Assembly: GCA_964293155.1 (NCBI GenBank)
Contig: CAXYYA010000028.1
Span: 1-48,569, forward strand
Direction of reading: 5' to 3'
DNA length: 48,569 nucleotides
Origin: an uncultured Bacteroidales bacterium
GTDB taxonomy: Bacteria > Bacteroidota > Bacteroidia > Bacteroidales > Dysgonomonadaceae
Position numbers and translations under genes: made by a program. Positions 4,335 through 38,161 of this stretch are shown in pieces (position 1 is the first letter of the stretch; each line of letters starts with the position of its first letter). Below the pieces are notes generated by a model. That model was given only the letters and a program-made list of their open reading frames with translations, was not told where the DNA came from and ran no database searches.

Positions 4335-5906
4335 ATGAAAAGAAAGTTTATATATATAATTAATATAGCAATTGCAGCACTGCTTTTTTCATGTACGAAT
4401 CTTAACGAAGATGTATATGATAAAATACCCGCAGACGAATTCGGAAACACTCAGGCTCAGATAAACTCCATTATTGCACCTATTTACAGGACACTGACAG
4501 GTCTGTGGCCCGGTGATGGTTTTGTTATTGCGGAAGAAGTTGGAGATATGGCCATTACACCGACAAGAACCGGTGGTGACTGGTGGGACGGCGGTATTCA
4601 CATGGAACTCGGACGTCACGTTTGGCAACCCCGAAACGGCGCGATTAACGGTTTGTGGAATACGGCAAGTAACGGCACGTCAACCTGTAATAAAATTATG
4701 GCCATTATTGAGGCAAACAAGTCGCTCGATGAAACTCAAAAACAGGCTGTGTATGCCGAGATCAGGGGCGTAAGGGCATTTTGGTATTATATTTTTCTGG
4801 ATTACTTTGGAAATGTACCTTTAGTAACGAGTTTCAATGATCAGGAGTTGCCTGCAACCAAGACCAGAAAAGAAGTATATGATTTTGTTGTAAGTGAGTT
4901 GAACGCGATAAAAGACCTGCTTCCCGCCGATGTTTCAGCCAAAACATACGGAAAGTTTACCAAAGGAGCCGCATATTTTCTGTTGGCGAAAATGTACCTC
5001 AATGCCGAGATATTTACCGGAACATTAACAGCTAACTCCTTTACAAAAGGAGCAGCCGAATGGCAAAAAACCATTGATGCCTGCGATGCGGTTTTGGACT
5101 TGCCTTATATCCTTGAACCAACATGGACACTGAATTTTGCCGTGAATAACGAAGCATCGAAAGAGATAATCTTCCCGTGTGTATTCACAAAGAAAGAATG
5201 GGGTAATTACATCCTTCACCGCACGTTGCATTACAAAGATCCCATCGCGTTGGGCATAAGTATCAGTCCTTGGAACGGTATTAGTGCAGTGCCGGATTAT
5301 GTAAACAGTTTCGATAACGCTGATAAGCGAAAAGCATGGTCGTTCCTTACCGGACCTATGATTGATCCGGCTACGGGTACCGTTTTATATACGCAGCACG
5401 GCAGGCCGTTGATTCACACCGTGGATATTCCCATGATCGCCGGAACAACGAGTAAATATGATGGTGTTTGGGGAGAAGTGGAACAAGAAGTCGGTGCAAG
5501 ATGTTTCAAATGGGCTATCGAACCCGGTATGTCGGCAACGTCTGAAAACGATTTTGCATTTTTCCGTTTAGCAGATGTTTATCTGATGAAAGCGGAAGCA
5601 TTGGCCAGACTGGGAAGAACAGCCGAAGCTTTGCCATTGGTTAACGCGGTAAGAACGCGTGCTTTTGATGATAAAACAAAATTATTGACTGCCGTAACGC
5701 TGAATGATATTTATAAAGAACGTCGTTTTGAGTTGGCGTGGGAGTGCTATACGCGTCAGGATATGATCCGTTTTGGAACGTTCACCGCTCCGCATTTTTT
5801 GAAACCGGAAGTAACGCCAATTTATCGCATCTTGTTACCGATACCTGTTCAGGCATTGGAGGCGAATAATAAACTGACACAGAATCCGGGATATCCTGGT
5901 TTATGA
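4335..5906 (+). CDS. SusD/RagB-family nutrient-binding outer-membrane lipoprotein
   Basis: 523 aa with a lipoprotein signal (MKRKFIYIINIAIAALLFSCTN). It is TPR-like helical and lies 19 bp downstream of the SusC-like gene, the canonical SusC/SusD pairing. Confidence 0.9.
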   Translation: MKRKFIYIINIAIAALLFSCTNLNEDVYDKIPADEFGNTQAQINSIIAPIYRTLTGLWPGDGFVIAEEVGDMAITPTRTGGDWWDGGIHMELGRHVWQPRNGAINGLWNTASNGTSTCNKIMAIIEANKSLDETQKQAVYAEIRGVRAFWYYIFLDYFGNVPLVTSFNDQELPATKTRKEVYDFVVSELNAIKDLLPADVSAKTYGKFTKGAAYFLLAKMYLNAEIFTGTLTANSFTKGAAEWQKTIDACDAVLDLPYILEPTWTLNFAVNNEASKEIIFPCVFTKKEWGNYILHRTLHYKDPIALGISISPWNGISAVPDYVNSFDNADKRKAWSFLTGPMIDPATGTVLYTQHGRPLIHTVDIPMIAGTTSKYDGVWGEVEQEVGARCFKWAIEPGMSATSENDFAFFRLADVYLMKAEALARLGRTAEALPLVNAVRTRAFDDKTKLLTAVTLNDIYKERRFELAWECYTRQDMIRFGTFTAPHFLKPEVTPIYRILLPIPVQALEANNKLTQNPGYPGL

Positions 5907-5925
5907 TCATTCACTAAATATAATA

Positions 5926-5957
5926 GAAAATGCTCAGGTTTTTCCTGAGCATTTTTT
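5926..5957. terminator. Bidirectional rho-independent terminator hairpin between convergent susD-like and hisS
   Basis: gaaaatgctcagg-ttttt-cctgagcattttt is a perfect 10-bp stem with U-runs readable on both strands. Confidence 0.6.
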
Positions 5958-5973
5958 ATCATTTGCCTTAGAA

Positions 5974-6008
5974 CAAGCGAGTTCCGACTCGCTTGATTTT
6001 TTTATTTT
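5974..6008. repeat. REP-like palindrome caagcgagt-tccg-actcgcttg plus T-run (copy 1)
   Basis: Perfect 9-bp inverted repeat followed by tttttttatttt. A near-identical palindrome recurs at 7432-7451 on the other side of hisS. Confidence 0.5.
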
Positions 6009-6012
6009 AAAG

Positions 6013-7374
6013 CTATTTGGAAATCGCTTTACCCAATTCTTCACCCGAAACCAATTTCTGTTCTCCCGATTTCATATCCTTCAACGTAATTTTACCTTCC
6101 TTCATTTCGTTTTCTCCCATTAACGCGACAAAAGGGATATTGTTGCTGTCGGCATACGACAGTTGTTTCTTCATTTTGGCGGCTTCGGGATAAATTTCGG
6201 CACAAATTCCTTTGTTTCGCAATTGGGCGAGGAGAGGCAAGATATAAGATTCTTCCTTATCGCCGAAATTCACAAAAAGCACATCGGTGGCGTGTGTAGA
6301 GTTTTCGGGGAAAAGGTTGAGTTGGTTGAGCACATCGTAAATGCGGTCGGCACCGAAGGAGATGCCGACACCCGATACGCCCGGCAGTCCGAAAATGCCC
6401 GTCAGGTTATCGTAACGGCCGCCGCCGGTGATGCTACCGATCTCTGCGTCAAGCGCTTTTACTTCGATAATAGCGCCGGTATAATAGTTGAGTCCGCGGG
6501 CAAGGGTAAGGTCGAGTTCAAGTTCGCAACCGATGCTTAATAAACCGGTTTTGTTGAGAATAAATTCCAGCTCCTCCACACCTTTCAATCCGGTTTGGGA
6601 GACCGAAAGCACGCTTTTCAGCGTTGCAAGTTTGTCGTTGTTCGTGCCTTCGAGCAATATGATAGGCTGCAATTGTTGAATAGCGGCTTCGGAGATTCCT
6701 TTTTCCCGAAGTTCTTCGTTCACCTTTTCCAACCCGATTTTATCCAATTTATCGATAGCCACCGTGATGTCGGTAATTTTATCGGCTTCGCCGATGATTT
6801 CGGCAATTCCCGAAAGTATTTTTCGGTTGTTGAGTTTTACGGATACACGGATATTTAATCTGCGAAAAACTTCATCAATGATCTGGATCAGTTCCACTTC
6901 GTTGAGCAGCGAATCAGAACCCACCACATCGGCGTCGCATTGAAAAAATTCGCGATAACGACCCTTTTGCGGACGGTCGGCACGCCACACGGGCTGAATC
7001 TGAAACCGCTTGAATGGAAACGAAATTTCGTTGCGGTGCATTACCACGTAGCGGGCAAACGGTACGGTAAGGTCGTATCGCAATCCTTTTTCCGAAATTT
7101 TGTTGGCGGTTTTAGCCGAGTTTCCTTCGGTAACGTCATCGGCGTGCATACTCGACAGGAAATCGCCCGAGTTCAATATCTTAAACAGCAGTTTATCGCC
7201 TTCTTCGCCGTATTTTCCCATCAATGTGGAAAGGTTTTCCATGGCGGGCGTTTCGATCTGGCGGAAGCCATATAGGCGGTACACTTCTTTAATGGTGTCG
7301 AAAATATAGTTGCGTTTCGCCATCTCTTCGGGCGAAAAATCGCGCGTTCCTTTGGGTATGGACGGTTTTTGCAT
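6013..7374 (-). CDS. hisS: Histidine--tRNA ligase
   Basis: 453 aa. It starts [25 protein letters not shown], has class II aaRS motifs, GGGRYDNL, and a C-terminal anticodon-binding domain. ATG start confirmed. Confidence 0.95.
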
Positions 7375-7431
7375 CGTTGTTTGTGTTTTGATTCAGGATG
7401 CAAAGATAGTGATTTTTGGGTTACGGGGGTG

Positions 7432-7451
7432 AAGCGAGTTCCAACTCGCTT
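7432..7451. repeat. REP-like palindrome aagcgagtt-cc-aactcgctt (copy 2)
   Basis: Same 8-9-bp arms as at 5976-5995. It lies in the divergent hisS/ubiB-like intergenic region. A second hairpin, aacgaat-cgga-attcgtt, lies at 7462-7480. Confidence 0.4.
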
Positions 7452-7639
7452 TAAAAATTCAAACGAATCGGAATTCGTTTTCAATCAGAAATCGTTTAAA
7501 AGTGACTTTAGGGTTTTGACTATTAAGTAGAGCTACAACAATAGCCTTGTGAAGTTTTCAAAATTTCTCCCCATTGTCGTAACTTTTTATTCATCATTCT
7601 TGTTATAAGTATTATTAAAATATCCGTAAAAAGAACATT

Positions 7640-9310
7640 ATGACTATTCTTCCCGAAAAAATAGAAAATTATTCCGGCATCATCGCTTTTATGCTTAAGT
7701 ATCGTAACAGCCACGTTTTTAACACCGTTGTGGATAATGCCGCGGACTTAGACGATGACGAAAAAACCGAAAGCGATGATTCAGGAATAACTCCGCAGGA
7801 TTTTGCAAACGATCTTAAACAGATGGGCCCCGTGTATGTGAAGTTGGGACAACTCTTATCCACACGTCCCGATTTATTACCCGAAGAATATTTGGATGAA
7901 CTGGCAAATTTGCAGGACGATGTAGAACCCATTGGATATGGGAAGATTGAGCGGTTGATAGAAGAGGAATTGGGTGTAAGAATTTCCAAAGCTTTCAAGA
8001 CATTTGATCCGGCACCCTTAGCCAGCGCTTCCATCGGCCAGGTACACAGGGCGGAATTGCCATCGGGCAAAAAAGTGGCCGTTAAGGTGCAGCGTCCCGG
8101 TATCCGGAAACAGTTTACGGAAGAACTGGAAACCTTAAAAAACATGGTGGACATGGCCGTAAAATACACGAAAACAGCCGATAAATACGCGCTGGACGAT
8201 GTTCTGGATGAACTCAGCCACATGTTAATGAACGAGCTGGACTATAAAATGGAGGCTCAAAGTCTGGTTATTTTGGGACAAAATCTCAAAGAATACAAGC
8301 GTCTTATCGTTCCTCAGCCGGTGATGGATTATTGCACTCCAAAAATCTTAACGATGGATTATGTGGAAGGTAAGAAAGTTACAAAAGTATCGCCATTTAC
8401 CAAAACGGAAGTGGATTTCACTCCATTGATCGATGAGTTAGTTAAGTCCTATCTTCAACAAGTGGTTATTGACGGTTTTGCACACGCCGATCCGCATCCG
8501 GGTAATGTACATTTTACTCCTGACAATAAAATAGCGCTGATAGATTTGGGCATGGTAGCCAAATTTAGCAATACGTTGAAAGATCAAATGTTGCGTTTGC
8601 TCCTTGCCATGAGTGAAATGTCGGGCGATAAGATCGTGGATATTTTACTGGGAATGAGCACGTATGACGAGACTGCAATGATAAAAGATTTCAGGAAAGA
8701 TGTTAACAGATTAGTTCTGGATAATCAAATCAGTATCGCTAAAGATTTAAAAACAGGCCGACTGATTATTCAAATGAATCGGATGGCTGCCGAGCGAAAC
8801 ATAAAAATAGCCGTAGAACTAAATCTGCTCGGCAAAATATTGTTGAATATTGATCAGATTATTGCAACATTAACTCCCGATTATGATTTTCAGAAAGCTA
8901 TAAACGAAAATGCCGAACGGTTGATGACGCAGAAAATGACGCAGGAATTGAAACCTGAAAACATGTTTAAAATGCTGTTGGAAACCAAAAAATTGGGCGA
9001 AAATTTACCGGAACGTTTAAACAAAATTTCTCAACGTTTAGCGGACAACGAGTTTGAAATTAAAGTGAATGCGATTGACGAAAAACGTTTTACCGATGGT
9101 TTTCAGAAAGTGGCTAACCGAATTACTGTGGGGTTAATAATTGCGGCACTTATTCTTGCCGCTTCTATGCTCATGCGTATGCCCACAAGTTTTACCATTC
9201 TCGGATATCCCGGGTTACCCCTTATTTTCTTTTTAATTGCATCCGGAGCAGGGATTATGTTGGTTTATAATATCATATCGAAAGACGAATATTTCCGAAA
9301 AAGAAAATAG
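7640..9310 (+). CDS. ABC1/UbiB (ADCK) family atypical protein kinase with a C-terminal TM anchor
   Basis: 556 aa with a kinase-like lobe (VAVKVQRPG, HADPHPGNV, IALIDLGMV) and two C-terminal hydrophobic helices. Confidence 0.88.
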   Translation: MTILPEKIENYSGIIAFMLKYRNSHVFNTVVDNAADLDDDEKTESDDSGITPQDFANDLKQMGPVYVKLGQLLSTRPDLLPEEYLDELANLQDDVEPIGYGKIERLIEEELGVRISKAFKTFDPAPLASASIGQVHRAELPSGKKVAVKVQRPGIRKQFTEELETLKNMVDMAVKYTKTADKYALDDVLDELSHMLMNELDYKMEAQSLVILGQNLKEYKRLIVPQPVMDYCTPKILTMDYVEGKKVTKVSPFTKTEVDFTPLIDELVKSYLQQVVIDGFAHADPHPGNVHFTPDNKIALIDLGMVAKFSNTLKDQMLRLLLAMSEMSGDKIVDILLGMSTYDETAMIKDFRKDVNRLVLDNQISIAKDLKTGRLIIQMNRMAAERNIKIAVELNLLGKILLNIDQIIATLTPDYDFQKAINENAERLMTQKMTQELKPENMFKMLLETKKLGENLPERLNKISQRLADNEFEIKVNAIDEKRFTDGFQKVANRITVGLIIAALILAASMLMRMPTSFTILGYPGLPLIFFLIASGAGIMLVYNIISKDEYFRKRK

Positions 9311-22987: not shown

Positions 22988-23142
22988 CGTAATTTATCCT
23001 ATATTTTTATTGGGCTACAAAGATAGTGAAAATGCTTTATTTGGCAAAGACGTAAAGTTTATCCGCAATGTTTCGAGGCTGAGAATTTTCAGTAGTCATG
23101 GCTAAAGCCGGTGTTCACGTTTGCTGGGTTCTCCGCTTTAAA

Positions 23143-23292
23143 CAGGCTGTGTAAGAAACATCGCAACAGTATCATTTTGTCATTCCGACGATAGGAGGAA
23201 TCTTTATTTGTCATAAATTATAAACTCTTCACTCCGCAAAGCTGCGTTCAGAGTGACAAAAAGACACCTAATTTTCATTTTTACACAGCCTC
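23143..23292. mobile_element. MITE-like element, family B, copy 2 (TAAA target-site duplication)
   Basis: ~95% identical to 9536-9684 and flanked by direct TAAA/TAAA. A solo family-A right TIR remnant (ttgcggataatca) lies at 23317-23329. Confidence 0.6.
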
Positions 23293-23650
23293 TAAAAGCA
23301 GGGTTATTAAGACGTATTGCGGATAATCAAAAAAATGACTATTTTTGTGAACGGGAAAAACATTTGTAAATGCCCATTAATTTGGTTGATTATTAAATCG
23401 CATAAATGAAGATGTTGGCAACGATTTGTAAATGTAAACTACAAAAATTTGGTAAATGGACAAGATTTGGTTAATAACAATAGCAACTGCAATTTTTTTG
23501 ATCATAAATTTTCTTTTTTATAAAACGCTCAACGTGTATTACAAAGAGGAATTTGGCAAAAAGACGTGAAAATTAGGAGGAGGGAGAATATACTTTTGGC
23601 AGGCATCAATAATTGTCAGCACAATAGGTGCGTTGATAGCAATTTATTTT

Positions 23651-23850
23651 TTAAAATAGTAAACGTTCATCACACCCTTCCCGCTTACGCGGATTTCTCG
23701 TCATAACGAGCGCACAGGTTCGAGCGGTAATCGGTGTGTGCCGCAGGCAAGAGTTTACTTCGTAACACACGCTTTGCAAAAGCGCGCGAGCACAAGCGGG
23801 ACACGAAGTTTGTAACTTCGTGAACGAAGGCACAGCCATCGTCTCCCAAT
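23651..23850. repeat. GC-rich cluster of five short hairpins (BIME-like), related to 45780-46110
   Basis: ccgc-ttac-gcgg, ctcgt-cata-acgag, cgcttt-gca-aaagcg and cacgaagtt-tgt-aacttcgtg. It shares motifs (ttgtaacttc, tgccgca, ttcgtaac) with the 45780-46110 array. The local GC is well above the genome background. Confidence 0.35.
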
Positions 23851-23892
23851 AAAAAAATCCGCCAAACGCTTCATCGCTTGGCGGATTTTTTA
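23851..23892. terminator. Strong bidirectional terminator at the end of the minus-strand gene array
   Basis: aaaaaaa-atccgccaa-acgcttcatcgc-ttggcggat-tttttta, a 9-bp perfect stem. Confidence 0.7.
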
Positions 23893-23912: not shown

Positions 23913-24743
23913 CTACAAAGGTATTAAGTAAAATGCCGACACGGAAAACCCTGAACTTACTTTATAATCGGCAGCGCTATCTTTCGTAAACGGGAAATTG
24001 AGCGAATATCCAAATTGCAGCTCAAAATTGCCCAAATTTACACTCAAGGGGAGAAACAGCTGGACGTTTAACAAGCCGAATACTTCCTCGGGAGTGGTTG
24101 CAAGGTTTATGGTTTCTTTGGCAAAATAGCCCGAAATTTCAGGGCCGAAATAAAAACGGTTGTTTTTCCCAAAATCTAAAAAATAAAAACCGGCAAAAAC
24201 GCTCGGACTGAGCGTATAGAATGTCTGACTCCCGAAAAGCAAATTGTTGGAGATACGTGCTCCATACCAGTCTTTTCGGTACGAAAGCGTTAAGTTGGCA
24301 TTGTTTTCATAGGGATAAATGGCTGTGGTGTCGGAATTGTAAATGAGACGGCTGTATGAACCGCTGGCTCTGAAGTGCTTGCTTTTATCCAGGTAAAGGC
24401 CGTATCCAAGCGTCAGCATTGTTGTGGTGTAGCCGGGCGAAAGCTGGTCGTACCATATTCCGGATGCTCCTGCAAAGAGTCCGTATTTGCTGAAATAATA
24501 AACGTGACCACTTACATTCGCTAAGTCGGTACCGATTTCTCTGCCTGCAAAGAACGTTTTATTATTGTAATTAAGGCCTGCGTACAAAAAGTCTTTCTTT
24601 TCACTAATTATTTCAGACAATAAAGTTTCATCACTAAATATCAAATCATTTAGTAATGAGTCAATTCTATCGGTTTGAGCGGCGGCTGAAATACCGTATA
24701 GAAGGAACAATATAAAGAATGCTTTTTTCATATGTTTATTCAT
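23913..24743 (-). CDS. Hypothetical outer-membrane beta-barrel protein
   Basis: 276 aa with a signal peptide (MKKAFFILFLLYGISAAAQ). Amphipathic beta-strands alternate with aromatic girdles. Alternative ATG at 24731. Confidence 0.55.
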   Translation of the reverse strand: MNKHMKKAFFILFLLYGISAAAQTDRIDSLLNDLIFSDETLLSEIISEKKDFLYAGLNYNNKTFFAGREIGTDLANVSGHVYYFSKYGLFAGASGIWYDQLSPGYTTTMLTLGYGLYLDKSKHFRASGSYSRLIYNSDTTAIYPYENNANLTLSYRKDWYGARISNNLLFGSQTFYTLSPSVFAGFYFLDFGKNNRFYFGPEISGYFAKETINLATTPEEVFGLLNVQLFLPLSVNLGNFELQFGYSLNFPFTKDSAADYKVSSGFSVSAFYLIPL

Positions 24744-24916
24744 TGATTTTTACATTATGGTCACATAGCTCATTCGAACGTACGAGAGAACACGCGTTTT
24801 AATTAATCCCCTGTTTCAAAATTATTCCGGTATGGCAGTTATTCCAATACCTTTAATAAAAACTTTTGAAAGAGCGTGAGCTCTTTCAAAAGTAATTTAA
24901 TTTTCATAATTAAGGT

Positions 24917-25558
24917 TTATTTGCCGCCACCTTTCATGCCGCCACCTTTTCCACCACCTTCGCCAAGCTGCTGCATTTGTTGCTGCATTTGCTGTTGCTG
25001 GCTGCCGGTAGATATATTCTGGTGTTCTCTGATTTGGTTGCGTTGTTGTTCCTTAACCTGTTCTTTGGTTTGCGTTGCAACTCCTTTGTTCAACCGGTTT
25101 TGATCTCTATACTGCAATTTCAGCATATTGCGTTGTTCTTCCGACAGAGAATTCATAAAGGCTTCTCTTTTTTCAGCTCTGGTCATCGTTTGGTTTTGAA
25201 GCAATTCAATTTGTTCGGGGGTAAGAGAGTTCTTGAATTGTTCGCGATTTCTCTGATTTACCATGCTCTGAATATCAGCATTTACCTGATTCCCTGTTGC
25301 TGAATGTAACCGATCCCGATCCCTCTGTTGCAATTGGTCAGCATCTTCAAGCGGATCGTGAATGCGGTCTCTTGTCTGGTCTTTCAACTGATCTTTCAGT
25401 TGATCTTTAGTTTGATCTTTGGTCTGATCTTTCAATTGATCCTTTTTTTCAATTTTGGTTTGGTCTTTTGCTCTTATAGGTGTGGTTTGAGCAAATGTAT
25501 TTGCGGCTAAAAAAAGAAAAGCTACAAATAAAACTCCGAAGATTGATTTTGTTTTCAT
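24917..25558 (-). CDS. Secreted LTXXQ-motif (Spy/CpxP/ZraP-like) periplasmic protein with an N-terminal KDQ[T/L] repeats and a Gly/Lys-rich tail
   Basis: Signal peptide, then (KDQx)n, then NSLTPEQIELLQ...REAFMNSLSEEQRNMLK (two LTXXQ motifs), then GGGKGGGMKGGGK. Confidence 0.65.
   Translation of the reverse strand: MKTKSIFGVLFVAFLFLAANTFAQTTPIRAKDQTKIEKKDQLKDQTKDQTKDQLKDQLKDQTRDRIHDPLEDADQLQQRDRDRLHSATGNQVNADIQSMVNQRNREQFKNSLTPEQIELLQNQTMTRAEKREAFMNSLSEEQRNMLKLQYRDQNRLNKGVATQTKEQVKEQQRNQIREHQNISTGSQQQQMQQQMQQLGEGGGKGGGMKGGGK
25375..25475. repeat. 12-bp tandem repeats (gatctttnnntt) encoding the KDQ[T/L] repeats
   Basis: tctttcaactgatctttcagttgatctttagtttgatctttggtctgatctttcaattgatcc. Confidence 0.5.
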
Positions 25559-25691
25559 AATTCTTGTTTTTAATAATTAATTCGTTTCCGTTTTGTATAA
25601 GATAACCGAACAAGTCTTGTAATACCCTACTTTTTTATTGAGATTTTTTCAATTAAATACTTTTTTTACTTTGAAAGGCGGTTCCAGCGGT

Positions 25692-26948
25692 TTATCTTGG
25701 AGATTGTTTTCCGCCTTCTCTTCTCATTCCGCCACCTTCTTTTTCAACCGGAGTGTTGGACAACTGGTTTTTACGATTCCGTTGTTCATCTTTCACGTTC
25801 TCTTTTATTCCGTCTTTGTGAACATCTTTGCCGAATTCTATTTCAGTGTTTTGATCCCTGAGCAATTGTCTTTGTTCGTTTGTAAGGGATTTAATGAACG
25901 CTTTCTGTCTTTCAGTTCTGCTCAACGTTTTGTCTTCCAGAATGTCGAGTTGCTTTTGGGTCAGTGAGTTTCTGAATCGGTTTTTAGCCGGTTCCGCATT
26001 ATTGTCTGCTGTTTCCCCCTGGCGATTTTGAAGATTCGTGCGTTCCTGATTTTCGGTTTGCAGTTTTGTCTCCGCTTCGTCTAGTAAGTTTTTAATTTCG
26101 TTTAAATGATTTTCCTTTAGCTCATTCGACAAATTCGGTTCTACTTTTAACGGGGTTGGCTCCTGCAACTGAATTTTCTCCTGACTCATCGTTCTCTGCC
26201 TTTCCGGTTCGGGTTTCATTTCGTCTTTTGGAATGACGGCAGGTTTTTCTTCCGTGATATTCATATCTTTTTCTTCTACGGCTACAGTTACTTCCGGAGT
26301 TACCTCAGTAGGATTGTTGTGATGCTGAGAAATAATTTCGAACTGTTTATCCGCCTTCAGCCTTGCTTTCTGACCGGTCGTTATCACAACTTCGTTTTTT
26401 TCGGCAAACTCCACAAGCATCACTTTTCCATGTTCGCAATTCACCTGGTATTCATTTTCGCGAGCCGTTACCAAAAATCGTGTTCCTAAAACCACCGTTT
26501 TGGCCTTTTCAGAAACAACTTCGAACCTACTTCCGCTTTCCACTTCAAAATAAGCTTCGCCGTTTAGCTTTGTTGTCCGGCTGAACTTCCACAGCAAAGG
26601 TTTGTAGCTCAGCGACGAATTGGCGTGCAACACCACCTTGGAATTGTCCGGCAAAAGAAAACTCTTTTCAGCTATCACGGTTTTCACATTCTTTGTATAT
26701 AATGTTGCTGTAACAGCAAATGAAACCAATAAAGCGATCGAGGCTACTGCCGCGTATTTCAACAGTTGGAAATACCGGACGGGCTGAACTTTCTTCCCGG
26801 TTGGGTTAGCATCCAGTTTTGCTTCCATTTCCATCCAAATATCCTCTTTGGACCTGATCCATTGAGGTCGGGTGTTGGAAATGATATCTTCTACTTCCTT
26901 CGAAAATACGATATTTTCTTTTTCGGAATATGTATGTTTAATAATCAT
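25692..26948 (-). CDS. FecR-family anti-sigma factor with a C-terminal LTXXQ (Spy/CpxP-like) extension
   Basis: 418 aa with a cytoplasmic N-terminus, one TM (LLKYAAVASIALLVSFAVTATLY) and a FecR domain (GEAYFEV...VVLGTRFLV). After a ~180-aa Glu/Lys/Gln-rich linker comes NSLTQKQLDILEDKTLSRTERQKAFIKSLTNEQRQLLR. This segment is homologous to the protein encoded at 24917-25558, including the Gly-rich end. It starts 9 bp after the sigma gene. Confidence 0.75.
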   Translation of the reverse strand: MIIKHTYSEKENIVFSKEVEDIISNTRPQWIRSKEDIWMEMEAKLDANPTGKKVQPVRYFQLLKYAAVASIALLVSFAVTATLYTKNVKTVIAEKSFLLPDNSKVVLHANSSLSYKPLLWKFSRTTKLNGEAYFEVESGSRFEVVSEKAKTVVLGTRFLVTARENEYQVNCEHGKVMLVEFAEKNEVVITTGQKARLKADKQFEIISQHHNNPTEVTPEVTVAVEEKDMNITEEKPAVIPKDEMKPEPERQRTMSQEKIQLQEPTPLKVEPNLSNELKENHLNEIKNLLDEAETKLQTENQERTNLQNRQGETADNNAEPAKNRFRNSLTQKQLDILEDKTLSRTERQKAFIKSLTNEQRQLLRDQNTEIEFGKDVHKDGIKENVKDEQRNRKNQLSNTPVEKEGGGMRREGGKQSPR

Positions 26949-26957
26949 AGGGTTTGG

Positions 26958-27440
26958 TTATAATAATGATTTTTTCAAAAATTGTAATGCTGCACTCATT
27001 CGTTTTTCTACAGCTTTCACACTTAAGCCCAGACGTTCGGCAATTTCCCAGTATTTCAAGCCCTCAATCCTCGACATTAGAAATACGGCTCGTTGCTTTT
27101 CGTTCAAACTGTTAAGTGCGATTTTATACTTTTCAAGTAACTCTTTGTGACTCAATGTATCTTCTGTCGAAGGCTCGTTACCGTAATAACGGATCGAAGC
27201 TATATAGTTCATTTCCAATACATCACGTCTATATTTACTAACAAACATGTCACCGGCAATTTTATAGAGGAGACGTTTTGCTGTTGTTTTATCTACCTCG
27301 AATTGTTTCTCCCAAAGCCGCATAAAAACCTCCTGTGCTATGTCTGAAGCATCATCCGGCCCCGCACCTCTATAATACAGGTAACCCCGTACCGAATCGA
27401 AGTAGGTATCGAACAAATATTTAAAATCCTCTTTTGTCAA
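26958..27440 (-). CDS. ECF-type RNA polymerase sigma-70 factor (copy 2)
   Basis: 160 aa with region 2 (DIAQEVFMRLW) and region 4 HTH (LKYWEIAERLGLSVKAVEKRM). The start codon is TTG; an in-frame stop lies immediately upstream and no ATG precedes region 2. Confidence 0.8.
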   Translation of the reverse strand: MTKEDFKYLFDTYFDSVRGYLYYRGAGPDDASDIAQEVFMRLWEKQFEVDKTTAKRLLYKIAGDMFVSKYRRDVLEMNYIASIRYYGNEPSTEDTLSHKELLEKYKIALNSLNEKQRAVFLMSRIEGLKYWEIAERLGLSVKAVEKRMSAALQFLKKSLL

Positions 27441-27708
27441 AATACAATGTACTTAACTTTGTTAGTATCCGAATGAATAAGCAAATACCCTACAATTTTT
27501 ATTATTATTCTTAATAAATTCCCGAAAATTATGAAAAATCAGGCATTTCAGGAAGATACCCATGAGTTTATTTCAACTTTTTTGACGATAAATAAACCGG
27601 CATTTTAAGTGGCACCGTGCTCAGCTATTTTTTCGCTGAATAAGGAATGGGCAATGCCGCAAGAAACGTTAGTGCCCGGTTTTATAATAAACAATATAAA
27701 TAAAGCGC

Positions 27709-28323
27709 TTATTTCACCAAATTCAAACCATCCTTTGCCGATTGATCCGTTGGCGAGATAATGAGAACCGTGTTGAAAAGCCGTTGCGCATCGTTCTTTT
27801 TCCCGAGGAAATATTTTGTCCAGGCGCTCATCAGCGTAGAGTAATAATCGAACGGATACATCTGTTGCACCAAATCGAAATATTTCTCGGCTTCCATAAA
27901 GTTTTTCCGATAATAATAAATGTTTCCCAGCGCGTAATTTACCCGCGAATTCACCTTGTCCAGCAAAAGAATTTTTTTGTAAACCGCTTCCAATTCATCG
28001 GTTTTTTTCTGCGCTTCCAGCGGATAGCACAGGCCGAGCAGCGCTTCAACCGCTTTAGGAGCTATGTCCACCGCTTTTTGGTAAAATTTCTTGCTGCTTT
28101 CGTAATCTTTGGAAAGATAATACAACCAACCCATTCTCAGAAATTTATGATAATCGAATCCATTCAGGCTGTTTAATTCGCTGATGGCTTTCTGGTAATC
28201 GCCTGACGACTCGTACTGATAACTGTTTGCAAAAACCTGCGAAGGATTCACCTGTGCCGATGCGGTAATTAAGCCCGCCGCCAGCAGAAAGGTGAGTACC
28301 GTTTTTTTAATTAAAAGTTCCAT
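27709..28323 (-). CDS. Tetratricopeptide-repeat secreted/lipoprotein
   Basis: 204 aa with a signal peptide and 4-5 TPR-like helical repeats. Confidence 0.6.
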   Translation of the reverse strand: MELLIKKTVLTFLLAAGLITASAQVNPSQVFANSYQYESSGDYQKAISELNSLNGFDYHKFLRMGWLYYLSKDYESSKKFYQKAVDIAPKAVEALLGLCYPLEAQKKTDELEAVYKKILLLDKVNSRVNYALGNIYYYRKNFMEAEKYFDLVQQMYPFDYYSTLMSAWTKYFLGKKNDAQRLFNTVLIISPTDQSAKDGLNLVK

Positions 28324-37293: not shown

Positions 37294-37579
37294 AATCGTC
37301 GAAATTATAATAGCCTAAATTCTCGATCTGACTGTCGTTTATGTTCATCGTAAACTCGTGAGAAACGCTTTTCTGGTAACTGTTACCGATGCTTACGCCT
37401 AAAAATGCAACGGCAGCAAGGCTGGCAGCCACAACCACAGTTTGCCAAACGGGCGTTCTGCGACGCTCCGGTTGTTGCCTTTTTTCGATTTCGGCCATCA
37501 CCCGCGTACTCAGGAACGGATTATGTTCCGTTTGCTTTTCGCGTTTGATGAAATCGTCTATGTACTGTTCCGTTTTCAT
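37286..37579 (-). CDS. Small single-TM anti-sigma factor (putative)
   Basis: 97 aa with an N-terminal cytoplasmic helix, one TM (VVVAASLAAVAFLGVSIG) and a short periplasmic tail. It lies immediately downstream of the ECF sigma gene. Confidence 0.5.
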   Translation of the reverse strand: MKTEQYIDDFIKREKQTEHNPFLSTRVMAEIEKRQQPERRRTPVWQTVVVAASLAAVAFLGVSIGNSYQKSVSHEFTMNINDSQIENLGYYNFDDYE

Positions 37580-37615
37580 TTTTTGTTCGTTTTATAGGTT
37601 AGACATTTGTATTGA

Positions 37616-38161
37616 TTATTTCCTACGGTCATATTCTAATTTTTTTTGCAGAGTGCTTTTTGCACGTTGTAAAAGTTGTTCCACAGCGCCTTCCGATTTT
37701 TTCATGACGGCGGCAATTTCTTTCTGCGGTAATTCTTCGTATTTACTCAGGATGAAAGCTGTTCGTTGCGAATCGGGCAGGGAATTGATGGCGTTTTTTA
37801 TCCGCTTGTCCCGTTCCGATTGTTCCAATCGTTCCAACGGCGTCTTTTCCTCACTCTGTTTGTGAAAGATGTTTTCCAACGATTCCACCACGCGGTTCTT
37901 CTTTTTTCGATTCACAAAATTGATACTCGCGTTTACGGTAATCCGGTACAGCCATGTAACAAATTGGGCTTCGCCCTTGAAATCGGGCAACGATTGATAT
38001 ATTTTAATGAAAACTTCCTGCGTGATATCTTCCGCATCTGCTTTGGAGTGCACAAAACCCAACGTCGTTCGGAACACCATACCCTGGTATTTCTCCATAA
38101 GTTCTTTAAAGACAATGGTGTTACCTGAAATTATTTCTTGTATGAGTTGCTCGTCCGACAT
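37616..38161 (-). CDS. ECF-type RNA polymerase sigma-70 factor (copy 1)
   Basis: 181 aa with region 2 (DAEDITQEVFIKIY...FVTWLYRITVN) and region 4 (LPDSQRTAFILSKYEELPQKEIAAVMKKSEGAVEQLLQRA). Confidence 0.85.
   Translation of the reverse strand: MSDEQLIQEIISGNTIVFKELMEKYQGMVFRTTLGFVHSKADAEDITQEVFIKIYQSLPDFKGEAQFVTWLYRITVNASINFVNRKKKNRVVESLENIFHKQSEEKTPLERLEQSERDKRIKNAINSLPDSQRTAFILSKYEELPQKEIAAVMKKSEGAVEQLLQRAKSTLQKKLEYDRRK

Follow-up and report, generated by a model that had tools for sequence, protein, structure and literature searches.

A FecR-type anti-sigma factor carrying a paralogue of its secreted LTXXQ neighbour: a candidate product-sensing ECF cassette in Bacteroidales

Introduction

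FecR-type regulators are understood as relays which need an outer-membrane transducer, and force delivered through TonB, to strip away a protective C-terminal fragment. In E. coli, autoproteolysis of FecR at Gly181/Thr182 gives rise to a C-terminal fragment which remains attached and prevents additional cleavage; once TonB and FecA have pulled this fragment off, RseP frees a sigma-activating fragment, and deletion of the C-terminal fragment leads to constitutive signalling (PMC12036975). Here a variation on this arrangement is described from an uncultured Bacteroidales bacterium of the Dysgonomonadaceae (assembly GCA_964293155.1), in positions 1 to 48,569 of contig CAXYYA010000028.1, the whole of which is referred to as the window. 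On its minus strand, a FecI-like extracytoplasmic function (ECF) sigma factor is followed by a FecR-type anti-sigma factor whose C-terminus is paralogous to a secreted LTXXQ-repeat protein encoded just downstream.

The window shares with E. coli FecI/FecR/FecA and with the cell-surface signalling systems of Pseudomonas a FecI-like sigma factor beside a single-pass FecR-domain regulator with aligned Gly-Thr residues, and its closest relatives retain FecR_C and an adjacent TonB-dependent receptor. The cassette itself, by contrast, has neither FecR_C nor a TonB-dependent transducer, the regulator ending instead in a disordered linker and an LTXXQ-repeat domain. Furthermore, the sigma gene is apparently autoregulated, and in place of a transporter the second transcription unit has a gene for a small secreted protein.

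Functional analogies are provided by the pairs CpxP–CpxA, ZraP–ZraS and CnrX–CnrY. CpxP is a member of the Cpx regulon which inhibits CpxA, and both Spy and CpxP are dimers. The window resembles CpxA/CpxR–CpxP and ZraS/ZraR–ZraP in having a secreted LTXXQ-motif protein, probably in the regulon of the pathway which it possibly inhibits, and in the logic of negative feedback by titration. It differs in using an ECF sigma/anti-sigma pair rather than a two-component system, and in that the periplasmic domain of the sensor is itself a paralogue of the accessory protein, homology to CpxP being at the level of the motif only. In CnrY/CnrX/CnrH and the ECF241 group, a periplasmic protein reportedly of the CpxP/Spy-like structural group controls, or is fused to, an ECF anti-sigma factor, sensor and anti-sigma factor being separate proteins in the former. 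The ECF241 regulators, from a FecI-like clade, have a predicted PF13801 periplasmic domain and an anti-sigma domain (PMC7826278). They have two transmembrane helices and a putative anti-sigma domain at the C-terminus, whereas the window protein keeps the canonical FecR N-terminal architecture and is accompanied by a free secreted paralogue.

The closest experimentally supported system is CirY/CirZ of Phocaeicola vulgatus with its Spy-like gene, the likeness being drawn from gene arrangement and the description in the source paper. When the anti-sigma factor is deleted in that species, the sigma gene is induced together with the spy-like gene and two further genes downstream (PMC13114119). In both loci a gene for a Spy-like periplasmic protein comes after an ECF sigma/anti-sigma pair of Bacteroidales, but no FecR-type regulator or anti-sigma factor bearing a copy of the chaperone is described for CirY/CirZ, and the downstream genes there encode hydrolases and not the protein of approximately 280 amino acids found in the window. 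Full-text literature searches returned no description of a FecR–LTXXQ fusion or of a paired secreted paralogue.

Paralogy of the anti-sigma C-terminus and the secreted protein

The elements on which the comparison of the two proteins turns are as follows.

25692-26948, minus strand: FecR-type anti-sigma factor, 418 amino acids (Pfam FecR domain at residues 95-176, E=1.2e-12)
26481-26486, minus strand: Gly155-Thr156 codons of the anti-sigma factor, aligned with the E. coli FecR autocleavage site Gly181/Thr182
25848-25982, minus strand: anti-sigma copy of the 45-residue two-motif LTXXQ core, residues 323-367 (from alignment; predicted local distance difference test score, pLDDT, 82-89)
24917-25558, minus strand: secreted LTXXQ-repeat protein, 213 amino acids, with signal peptide, 3' of the anti-sigma gene
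25109-25243, minus strand: secreted copy of the 45-residue LTXXQ core, residues 106-150 (from alignment)

The two proteins are paralogues, as a preliminary description of this DNA had claimed. BLASTP aligns them with an E-value of 7e-14 and 31% identity over 155 amino acids, pairing residues 246-391 of the anti-sigma factor with residues 27-174 of the secreted protein, which is nearly the entire mature form of the latter. Shuffling the secreted sequence 500 times with its composition preserved gave local alignment scores of 61 +/- 9.6 (maximum 97), against 192 for the real pair (z=13.7), and the similarity therefore goes beyond a common richness in Gln, Glu and Lys. At its centre is a gap-free core of 45 residues with 42% amino acid identity, NRFRNSLTQKQLDILEDKTLSRTERQKAFIKSLTNEQRQLLRDQN in the anti-sigma factor and EQFKNSLTPEQIELLQNQTMTRAEKREAFMNSLSEEQRNMLKLQY in the secreted protein. 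The spacing of the LTXXQ motifs is the same in both copies at 26 residues, with LTQKQ at 329 and LTNEQ at 355 in the anti-sigma factor and LTPEQ at 112 and LSEEQ at 138 in the secreted protein. The shuffle test and the gap-free conserved core together rule out low-complexity similarity as an artefact.

The similarity said to be visible in the DNA as well is present, albeit weak: the core is 61% identical over 135 nt, with a blastn E-value of 0.008, and third codon positions within it are 42% identical. To judge by these figures the duplication is old rather than recent. Recent duplication or gene conversion is ruled out by the third-position identity and by the clustering of anti-sigma cores with one another and not with the secreted copy of their own genome.

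Architecture of the anti-sigma factor

As expected of a FecR-type regulator, the anti-sigma factor is a single-pass protein with a periplasmic FecR domain (PF04773), encoded beside a FecI-like ECF sigma factor. An AlphaFold model and Pfam place its N-terminus in the cytoplasm, a transmembrane helix at about 57-84 and the periplasmic FecR beta domain at 86-207. The C-terminal half consists of a disordered linker (208-320), the LTXXQ core (323-367) and a tail rich in Gly, Lys and Arg. Pfam recognises the FecR domain and nothing else in this protein; FecR_C (PF16344) is absent, and the FecR_C hidden Markov model (HMM) matches relatives of approximately 290 amino acids but not the window protein. 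A database entry entitled 'FecR family protein [Petrimonas sp.]' is 100% identical to it.

An alignment of 15 full-length homologues, 31-83% identical to the window protein, shows the core to be by far the most conserved part of the C-terminal half, the surrounding linker being variable. Twelve core residues are invariant (F325, S328, L329, Q333, I336, L337, F351, L355, E358, Q359, L362 and L363), and the core contains no conserved metal-binding His or Cys. The linker, some 115 residues in the window, is kept at a length of about 100-135 residues across the homologues although its sequence is not. Beyond the FecR domain, the LTXXQ core is the only conserved element of the C-terminal fragment. 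G155 and T156 are invariant in all homologues and align, at the level of sequence, with G181 and T182 of E. coli FecR, so that the Gly-Thr autoproteolysis site appears to have been kept. In a related locus (L005, 5689-6732), a single open reading frame (ORF) of 334 amino acids (P0010) joins sigma-70 region 4 to a FecR N-domain; this could be a frameshift, an assembly artefact or a genuine sigma/anti-sigma fusion.

The secreted protein and the LTXXQ-repeat family

The secreted protein comprises a signal peptide (residues 1-23, with predicted cleavage before Gln24), a disordered region of KDQ repeats, a helical domain at about 93-195 and a Gly-rich tail. Its AlphaFold model is helical, with pLDDT values of 87-94 over the core. 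In each window copy, two L-T/S-x-x-Q motifs lie within a helical model (pLDDT 82-94 over the core), which is placed in the periplasm by the signal peptide or, in the anti-sigma factor, by a position C-terminal to the single transmembrane helix. The N-terminal disordered region (window about 25385-25470) is made up of tandem KDQ(T/L)(K/R)DQL-type units, the copy number of which varies strongly among genomes, from few in the window to approximately 13 in L051 (5399-6196).

The assignment of both copies to the LTXXQ domain, made in the preliminary description, is supported through relatives, the window copies themselves falling below threshold. Neither the full-length secreted protein nor the 276-residue protein encoded after it has a significant Pfam or NCBIfam match, and the full anti-sigma factor does not match PF07813, the CpxP/Spy family. 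When segments are taken in isolation, PF07813 scores 17.2 bits for the secreted protein and 12.9 bits for the anti-sigma factor, against a gathering threshold of 24.3. This threshold is passed by Bacteroidota proteins which the core profile matches at E=1e-16 to 1e-25 (P0067, 29.5; P0068, 24.8; P0078, 27.2; P0077, 33.6 bits), and 22 of 59 aligned family members match PF07813 at E<=0.01.

Out of 1.84 billion representative proteins, an exhaustive profile search with a 55-column core alignment retrieved 276 at E<=1e-3. Around 20 of these are anti-sigma factors of 400-450 amino acids with the same architecture, another set are secreted proteins like that of the window, and most of the remainder are Bacteroidota signal-peptide proteins of 130-170 amino acids with four LTXXQ motifs at an exact period of 26 residues (43/69/95/121 in P0078). 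Repeats 2 and 3 of such four-motif proteins of about 150 residues (P0078, P0113) match the window core at E=1e-12 to 1e-16. The window pair differs from them in that motifs 1 and 4, though recognisable, are degenerate (for instance TQTKEQ for TLTSEQ), and in the addition of long low-complexity regions and Gly-rich tails. A word-indexed search with the full secreted protein returned one relative and failed to return the protein itself, low-complexity words having probably swamped the candidates. The fusion was called unusual in the preliminary description; it is indeed rare, at about 20 clusters at 50% identity among the 1.84 billion representatives, but has precedents in ECF241 with PF13801 and in the Spy-like gene of Phocaeicola vulgatus.

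The relationship to Spy and CpxP is more distant. In E. coli the motifs lie at 57/130 in Spy and 51/124 in CpxP, a spacing of 73 residues as opposed to 26 in the window. Alignment by hhalign to E. coli Spy and CpxP gave probabilities of 4-6% (CpxP 5.7%), with one motif and a partial helix aligned, and PDB profile searches with the core and the extended domain found no Spy, CpxP, ZraP or CnrX; matches there to TFAM, designed helical proteins and lethal factor were set aside as chance. Motif and relatives thus point to a Bacteroidota LTXXQ-repeat family at the edge of the Pfam LTXXQ family.

Promoter-like motifs and transcription units

The remaining elements of the cassette are listed here from 5' to 3'.

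27469-27492, minus strand: promoter-like motif P1, GTAGGGTA-N13-TCGG, 5' of the sigma gene (motif match)
26958-27440, minus strand: ECF sigma factor, 160 amino acids, FecI-like Bacteroidetes type (Pfam Sigma70_r2 and Sigma70_r4_2)
25606-25629, minus strand: promoter-like motif P2, GTAGGGTA-N13-TCGG, 3' of the anti-sigma stop codon and 5' of the secreted gene
24862-24893, minus strand: hairpin resembling an intrinsic terminator, with a 14-bp stem and a U run after it, 3' of the secreted gene
23913-24743, minus strand: fourth cassette gene, 276-amino-acid signal-peptide protein of an uncharacterised family, in a conserved position 3' of the secreted LTXXQ gene
23852-23891, minus strand: hairpin with 17-nt arms just 3' of the fourth gene, the probable end of the cassette

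The sigma factor scores 112.6 bits with NCBIfam TIGR02985, under the cutoff of 126.4 bits, and matches the FecI model at E=7e-22; the anti-sigma gene starts 9 nt past its stop codon. A motif with the consensus aaaGTAGGGTAaa...attttcgTtCGGtttaa and a fixed gap of 13 nt lies 5' of the sigma and secreted genes across related loci. The pattern GTAGGGTA-N13-NCGG has exactly two matches in the 48.5-kb window, both on the minus strand, at P1 and P2. In 1.03 Mb of related loci, both strands included, there are 63 matches against roughly two expected by our estimate from the information content of the pattern. Almost all of them are on the operon strand at the two positions, and a second site is found at the position equivalent to P2 in nearly all related loci. 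The motif is a good candidate for the cognate promoter of the ECF sigma factor, in which case the sigma gene would be autoregulated and the secreted gene, probably a member of the regulon, would be a direct target. A scan for sigma-70-type promoters gave results no higher than shuffle expectation and was not used.

The hairpin following the secreted gene has a folding energy of -21.4 kcal/mol (z=-6.8), and comparable hairpins are present in other loci. This hairpin with its U run lies 5' of the 276-residue gene. Since no sigma-type motif was found there, that gene may be expressed by read-through or independently.

A second GTAGGGTA-N13-NCGG site is also seen 3' of the TonB-dependent receptor gene in eight loci (L013, L014, L016, L017, L025, L029, L030 and L032). 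Where sigma/FecR/receptor loci lack an LTXXQ gene, the second motif precedes a lipoprotein of approximately 298 amino acids and/or a DUF2202 protein (E=2.6e-50). The tails of the DUF2202 proteins are rich in Gly, Asn, Lys and Arg and resemble those of the LTXXQ proteins and the anti-sigma factor.

Related loci and the origin of the cassette

A scan with the anti-sigma alignment, at one genome per species, gave 41 loci, on all ORFs of which component HMMs were run; targeted contig look-ups were added. Three cassette types emerged. Type B, to which the window belongs, is represented by 10 independent loci (the window, L001, L002, L004, L006, L007, L050, L051, L052 and the P0020 contig), in which the order is sigma factor, FecR–LTXXQ anti-sigma factor (404-452 amino acids), secreted LTXXQ protein and ~280-residue protein, with flanking genes which are unrelated between loci. 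No TonB-dependent receptor was found in the cassette or the rest of the window with an HMM built from the receptor of related loci, nor in the nine other type B loci. Type A (L003, L009-L012, L016, L021, L022 and L045, the last from the cultured Mangrovibacterium diazotrophicum) has the order sigma factor, FecR of ~290 amino acids with FecR_C, TonB-dependent receptor of ~840 amino acids, secreted LTXXQ protein and ~280-residue protein. The N-terminus of the type A receptor has a weak match to a FecR_C/STN-like domain. Type C is a single locus (L046, Ochrovirga pacifica, 5331-7948) comprising an unrelated ECF sigma factor, a 127-residue protein with a single transmembrane helix, a four-motif LTXXQ protein and the ~280-residue protein. 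The recurrence of the last two in all three types identifies them as a conserved pair under different ECF front ends.

In a tree of the FecR N-domain, type B forms one clade nested among receptor-coupled systems, and its lack of FecR_C and of a receptor is therefore a derived state. Type B would accordingly have arisen by replacement of FecR_C with a copy of the secreted protein and loss of the receptor. In a tree of the core, the anti-sigma copies form one clade beside the type B secreted copies with mirrored branching, a pattern consistent with a single ancient duplication and fusion, after which the two copies diverged in parallel. Both trees were built by neighbour joining from short sequences and are to be read as indicative.

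In every cassette type, the gene for the ~280-residue protein comes directly after that for the secreted LTXXQ protein. Its family comprises 105 clusters, all annotated 'hypothetical' and none with a Pfam domain, and a PDB profile search with the protein found no relative; weak matches to streptavidin (E>=0.005) were taken as chance. Its beta-amphipathic segments and its aromatic-, Gly- and Ser-rich, Cys-free composition suggest that it is possibly an outer-membrane beta-barrel.

A PNGase F-like gene lies 3' of the receptor-coupled cassette in two distant loci (L003, 7116-8819; L045, 8057-9772), a possible hint that the ancestral system responded to a signal related to glycans.

Neighbouring genes in the window

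Approximately 9 kb from the cassette is a second ECF operon (34440-38161, minus strand). Besides a sigma factor (37616-38161) and a 97-residue protein with a single transmembrane helix, it encodes a heavy-metal-resistance protein of the PF13801 family anchored in the membrane (36718-37293, 30.4 bits), a secreted protein of 187 residues in which FVDADKDGVCDNFENGTP units recur, a PqqD-like protein and two proteins resembling DUF2202/rubrerythrin. A similar operon is found immediately 5' of the cassette in L002 and L050.

Immediately 5' of the sigma gene, on the same strand, are genes for two signal-peptide proteins containing tetratricopeptide repeats (27709-29696, minus strand), the second of which (461 amino acids) has a Gly-rich insert and a faint match to the beta-barrel-like DUF2490. 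Elsewhere the cassette does not have these two genes as conserved neighbours. The interval of some 750 bp which separates ffh from the cassette (23105-23850) is partly GC-rich and contains no ORF of more than 62 amino acids. A search of the window, this interval included, against Rfam found nothing at gathering thresholds; there were sub-threshold matches at the terminator hairpin near 23850.

A model for signal perception and its alternatives

With no transducer in type B, something else must control the C-terminal fragment. The reading we favour, at a probability of roughly 0.4, is that the four genes form a self-contained ECF cassette which descends from a cell-surface-signalling system dependent on TonB and is now governed by CpxP-like product-sensing feedback. 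The sigma factor would autoregulate and drive the secreted paralogue. The C-terminal fragment left by self-cleavage would, like that of E. coli FecR, keep the membrane stub from being cut further, and its stability would be set by the pairing of its LTXXQ domain with the secreted paralogue. Were the free paralogue to become scarce, through degradation or because clients or a ligand titrate it, the fragment would be lost, the stub cleaved and the sigma factor released; more paralogue would then be made and the pathway would switch off. A domain copied from a self-associating secreted protein would be expected to have the free protein as its partner as soon as the fusion arose, and the free protein is apparently induced by the sigma factor. 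Product sensing seems the most economical reading and the best-supported of the candidate mechanisms. The idea in the preliminary description that the secreted copy could titrate the sensor domain, as CpxP acts on CpxA, gains indirect support from the promoter-like motif shared by the sigma and secreted genes and from the conserved pairing of the two proteins at all type B loci. The fourth gene, the loss of FecR_C and of the receptor, and the shared promoter-like motif had no place in that description. The fuller proposition is more doubtful: that a TonB-independent FecR pathway came about in one evolutionary step from a receptor-coupled system through capture of the effector as sensor, and that retention or release of the fragment by paralogue pairing makes it a product-sensing homeostat, through which the cell would gauge how much of its periplasmic stress protein is free.

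Several points weigh against product sensing. Within one genome the fused and free cores are 35-64% identical, and heterodimerisation cannot be assumed. The fold-level likeness to Spy and CpxP, on which the analogy with their dimers is based, is not established, and the promoter is proposed from conservation only. The secreted protein is also present in type A systems, where the anti-sigma factor has no LTXXQ domain, showing that its primary role needs no fused copy. Finally, every type B locus comes from metagenome-assembled genomes or metagenomes.

The strongest competitor, although rather unlikely, holds that the fused domain binds not the paralogue but the client or ligand of the secreted protein, either unfolded envelope proteins or metal. 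Ligand binding would destabilise the C-terminal fragment and so set off the proteolytic cascade, leaving the secreted copy as effector only. The attraction here is that a copied effector domain has the ligand specificity of the effector from its capture onwards, and the LTXXQ-clan proteins CnrX and ZraP are themselves ligand sensors, responding to metal. The putative second promoter in related sigma/FecR loci would drive ferritin-like DUF2202 proteins, and the second ECF operon of the window, with PF13801 and two DUF2202 proteins, hints at a theme of metal or oxidative stress. Such a sensor is however difficult to reconcile with the lack of conserved metal-binding His or Cys in the core, and it leaves unexplained why the entire mature protein is mirrored, including disordered regions and the Gly-rich tail.

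Less probable is a docking arrangement at the outer membrane, in which both LTXXQ copies bind the ~280-residue protein as a replacement for the TonB-dependent transducer, the linker of about 115 residues providing the reach. The LTXXQ and ~280-residue genes are always found side by side in the three cassette types, even under the unrelated ECF sigma factor and 127-residue membrane protein of type C, and the linker has kept its length (~100-135 residues) though not its sequence. Against this, the fold and location of the ~280-residue protein are predictions from its sequence, its gene is set apart from the secreted gene by a terminator-like hairpin and has no sigma-type motif before it, and nothing in the system would supply force as TonB does.

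Least probable of all is that the shared region, with its Gly/Lys/Arg-rich tail, is mainly a protease-recognition or spacer element, the paralogue being a competing substrate of the site-1 protease or the fused copy a tolerated remnant devoid of sensory function: Gly-rich basic tails are alike in both proteins and in other second-promoter products (DUF2202), and FecR-type pathways do rely on periplasmic proteolysis (PMC12036975), but conservation peaks in the 45-residue helical core and not in the tails, and a neutral remnant would hardly be maintained across divergence as deep as 31-83% identity to the window anti-sigma factor among the 14 aligned homologues.

Implications

The comparison defines a candidate ECF promoter and two uncharacterised Bacteroidota families, namely the LTXXQ-repeat proteins with a 26-residue period and their invariant partner of ~280 amino acids. 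The type B clade has kept the FecR core, lost the docking domain and the transducer, and gained a copy of the protein which it most likely regulates. If the paralogues interact, this would be a natural example of a signalling input rewired by copying the output protein onto the sensor. If product sensing is true, CpxP-type logic, in which an accessory protein reports its own availability, would extend from two-component systems to ECF sigma factors.

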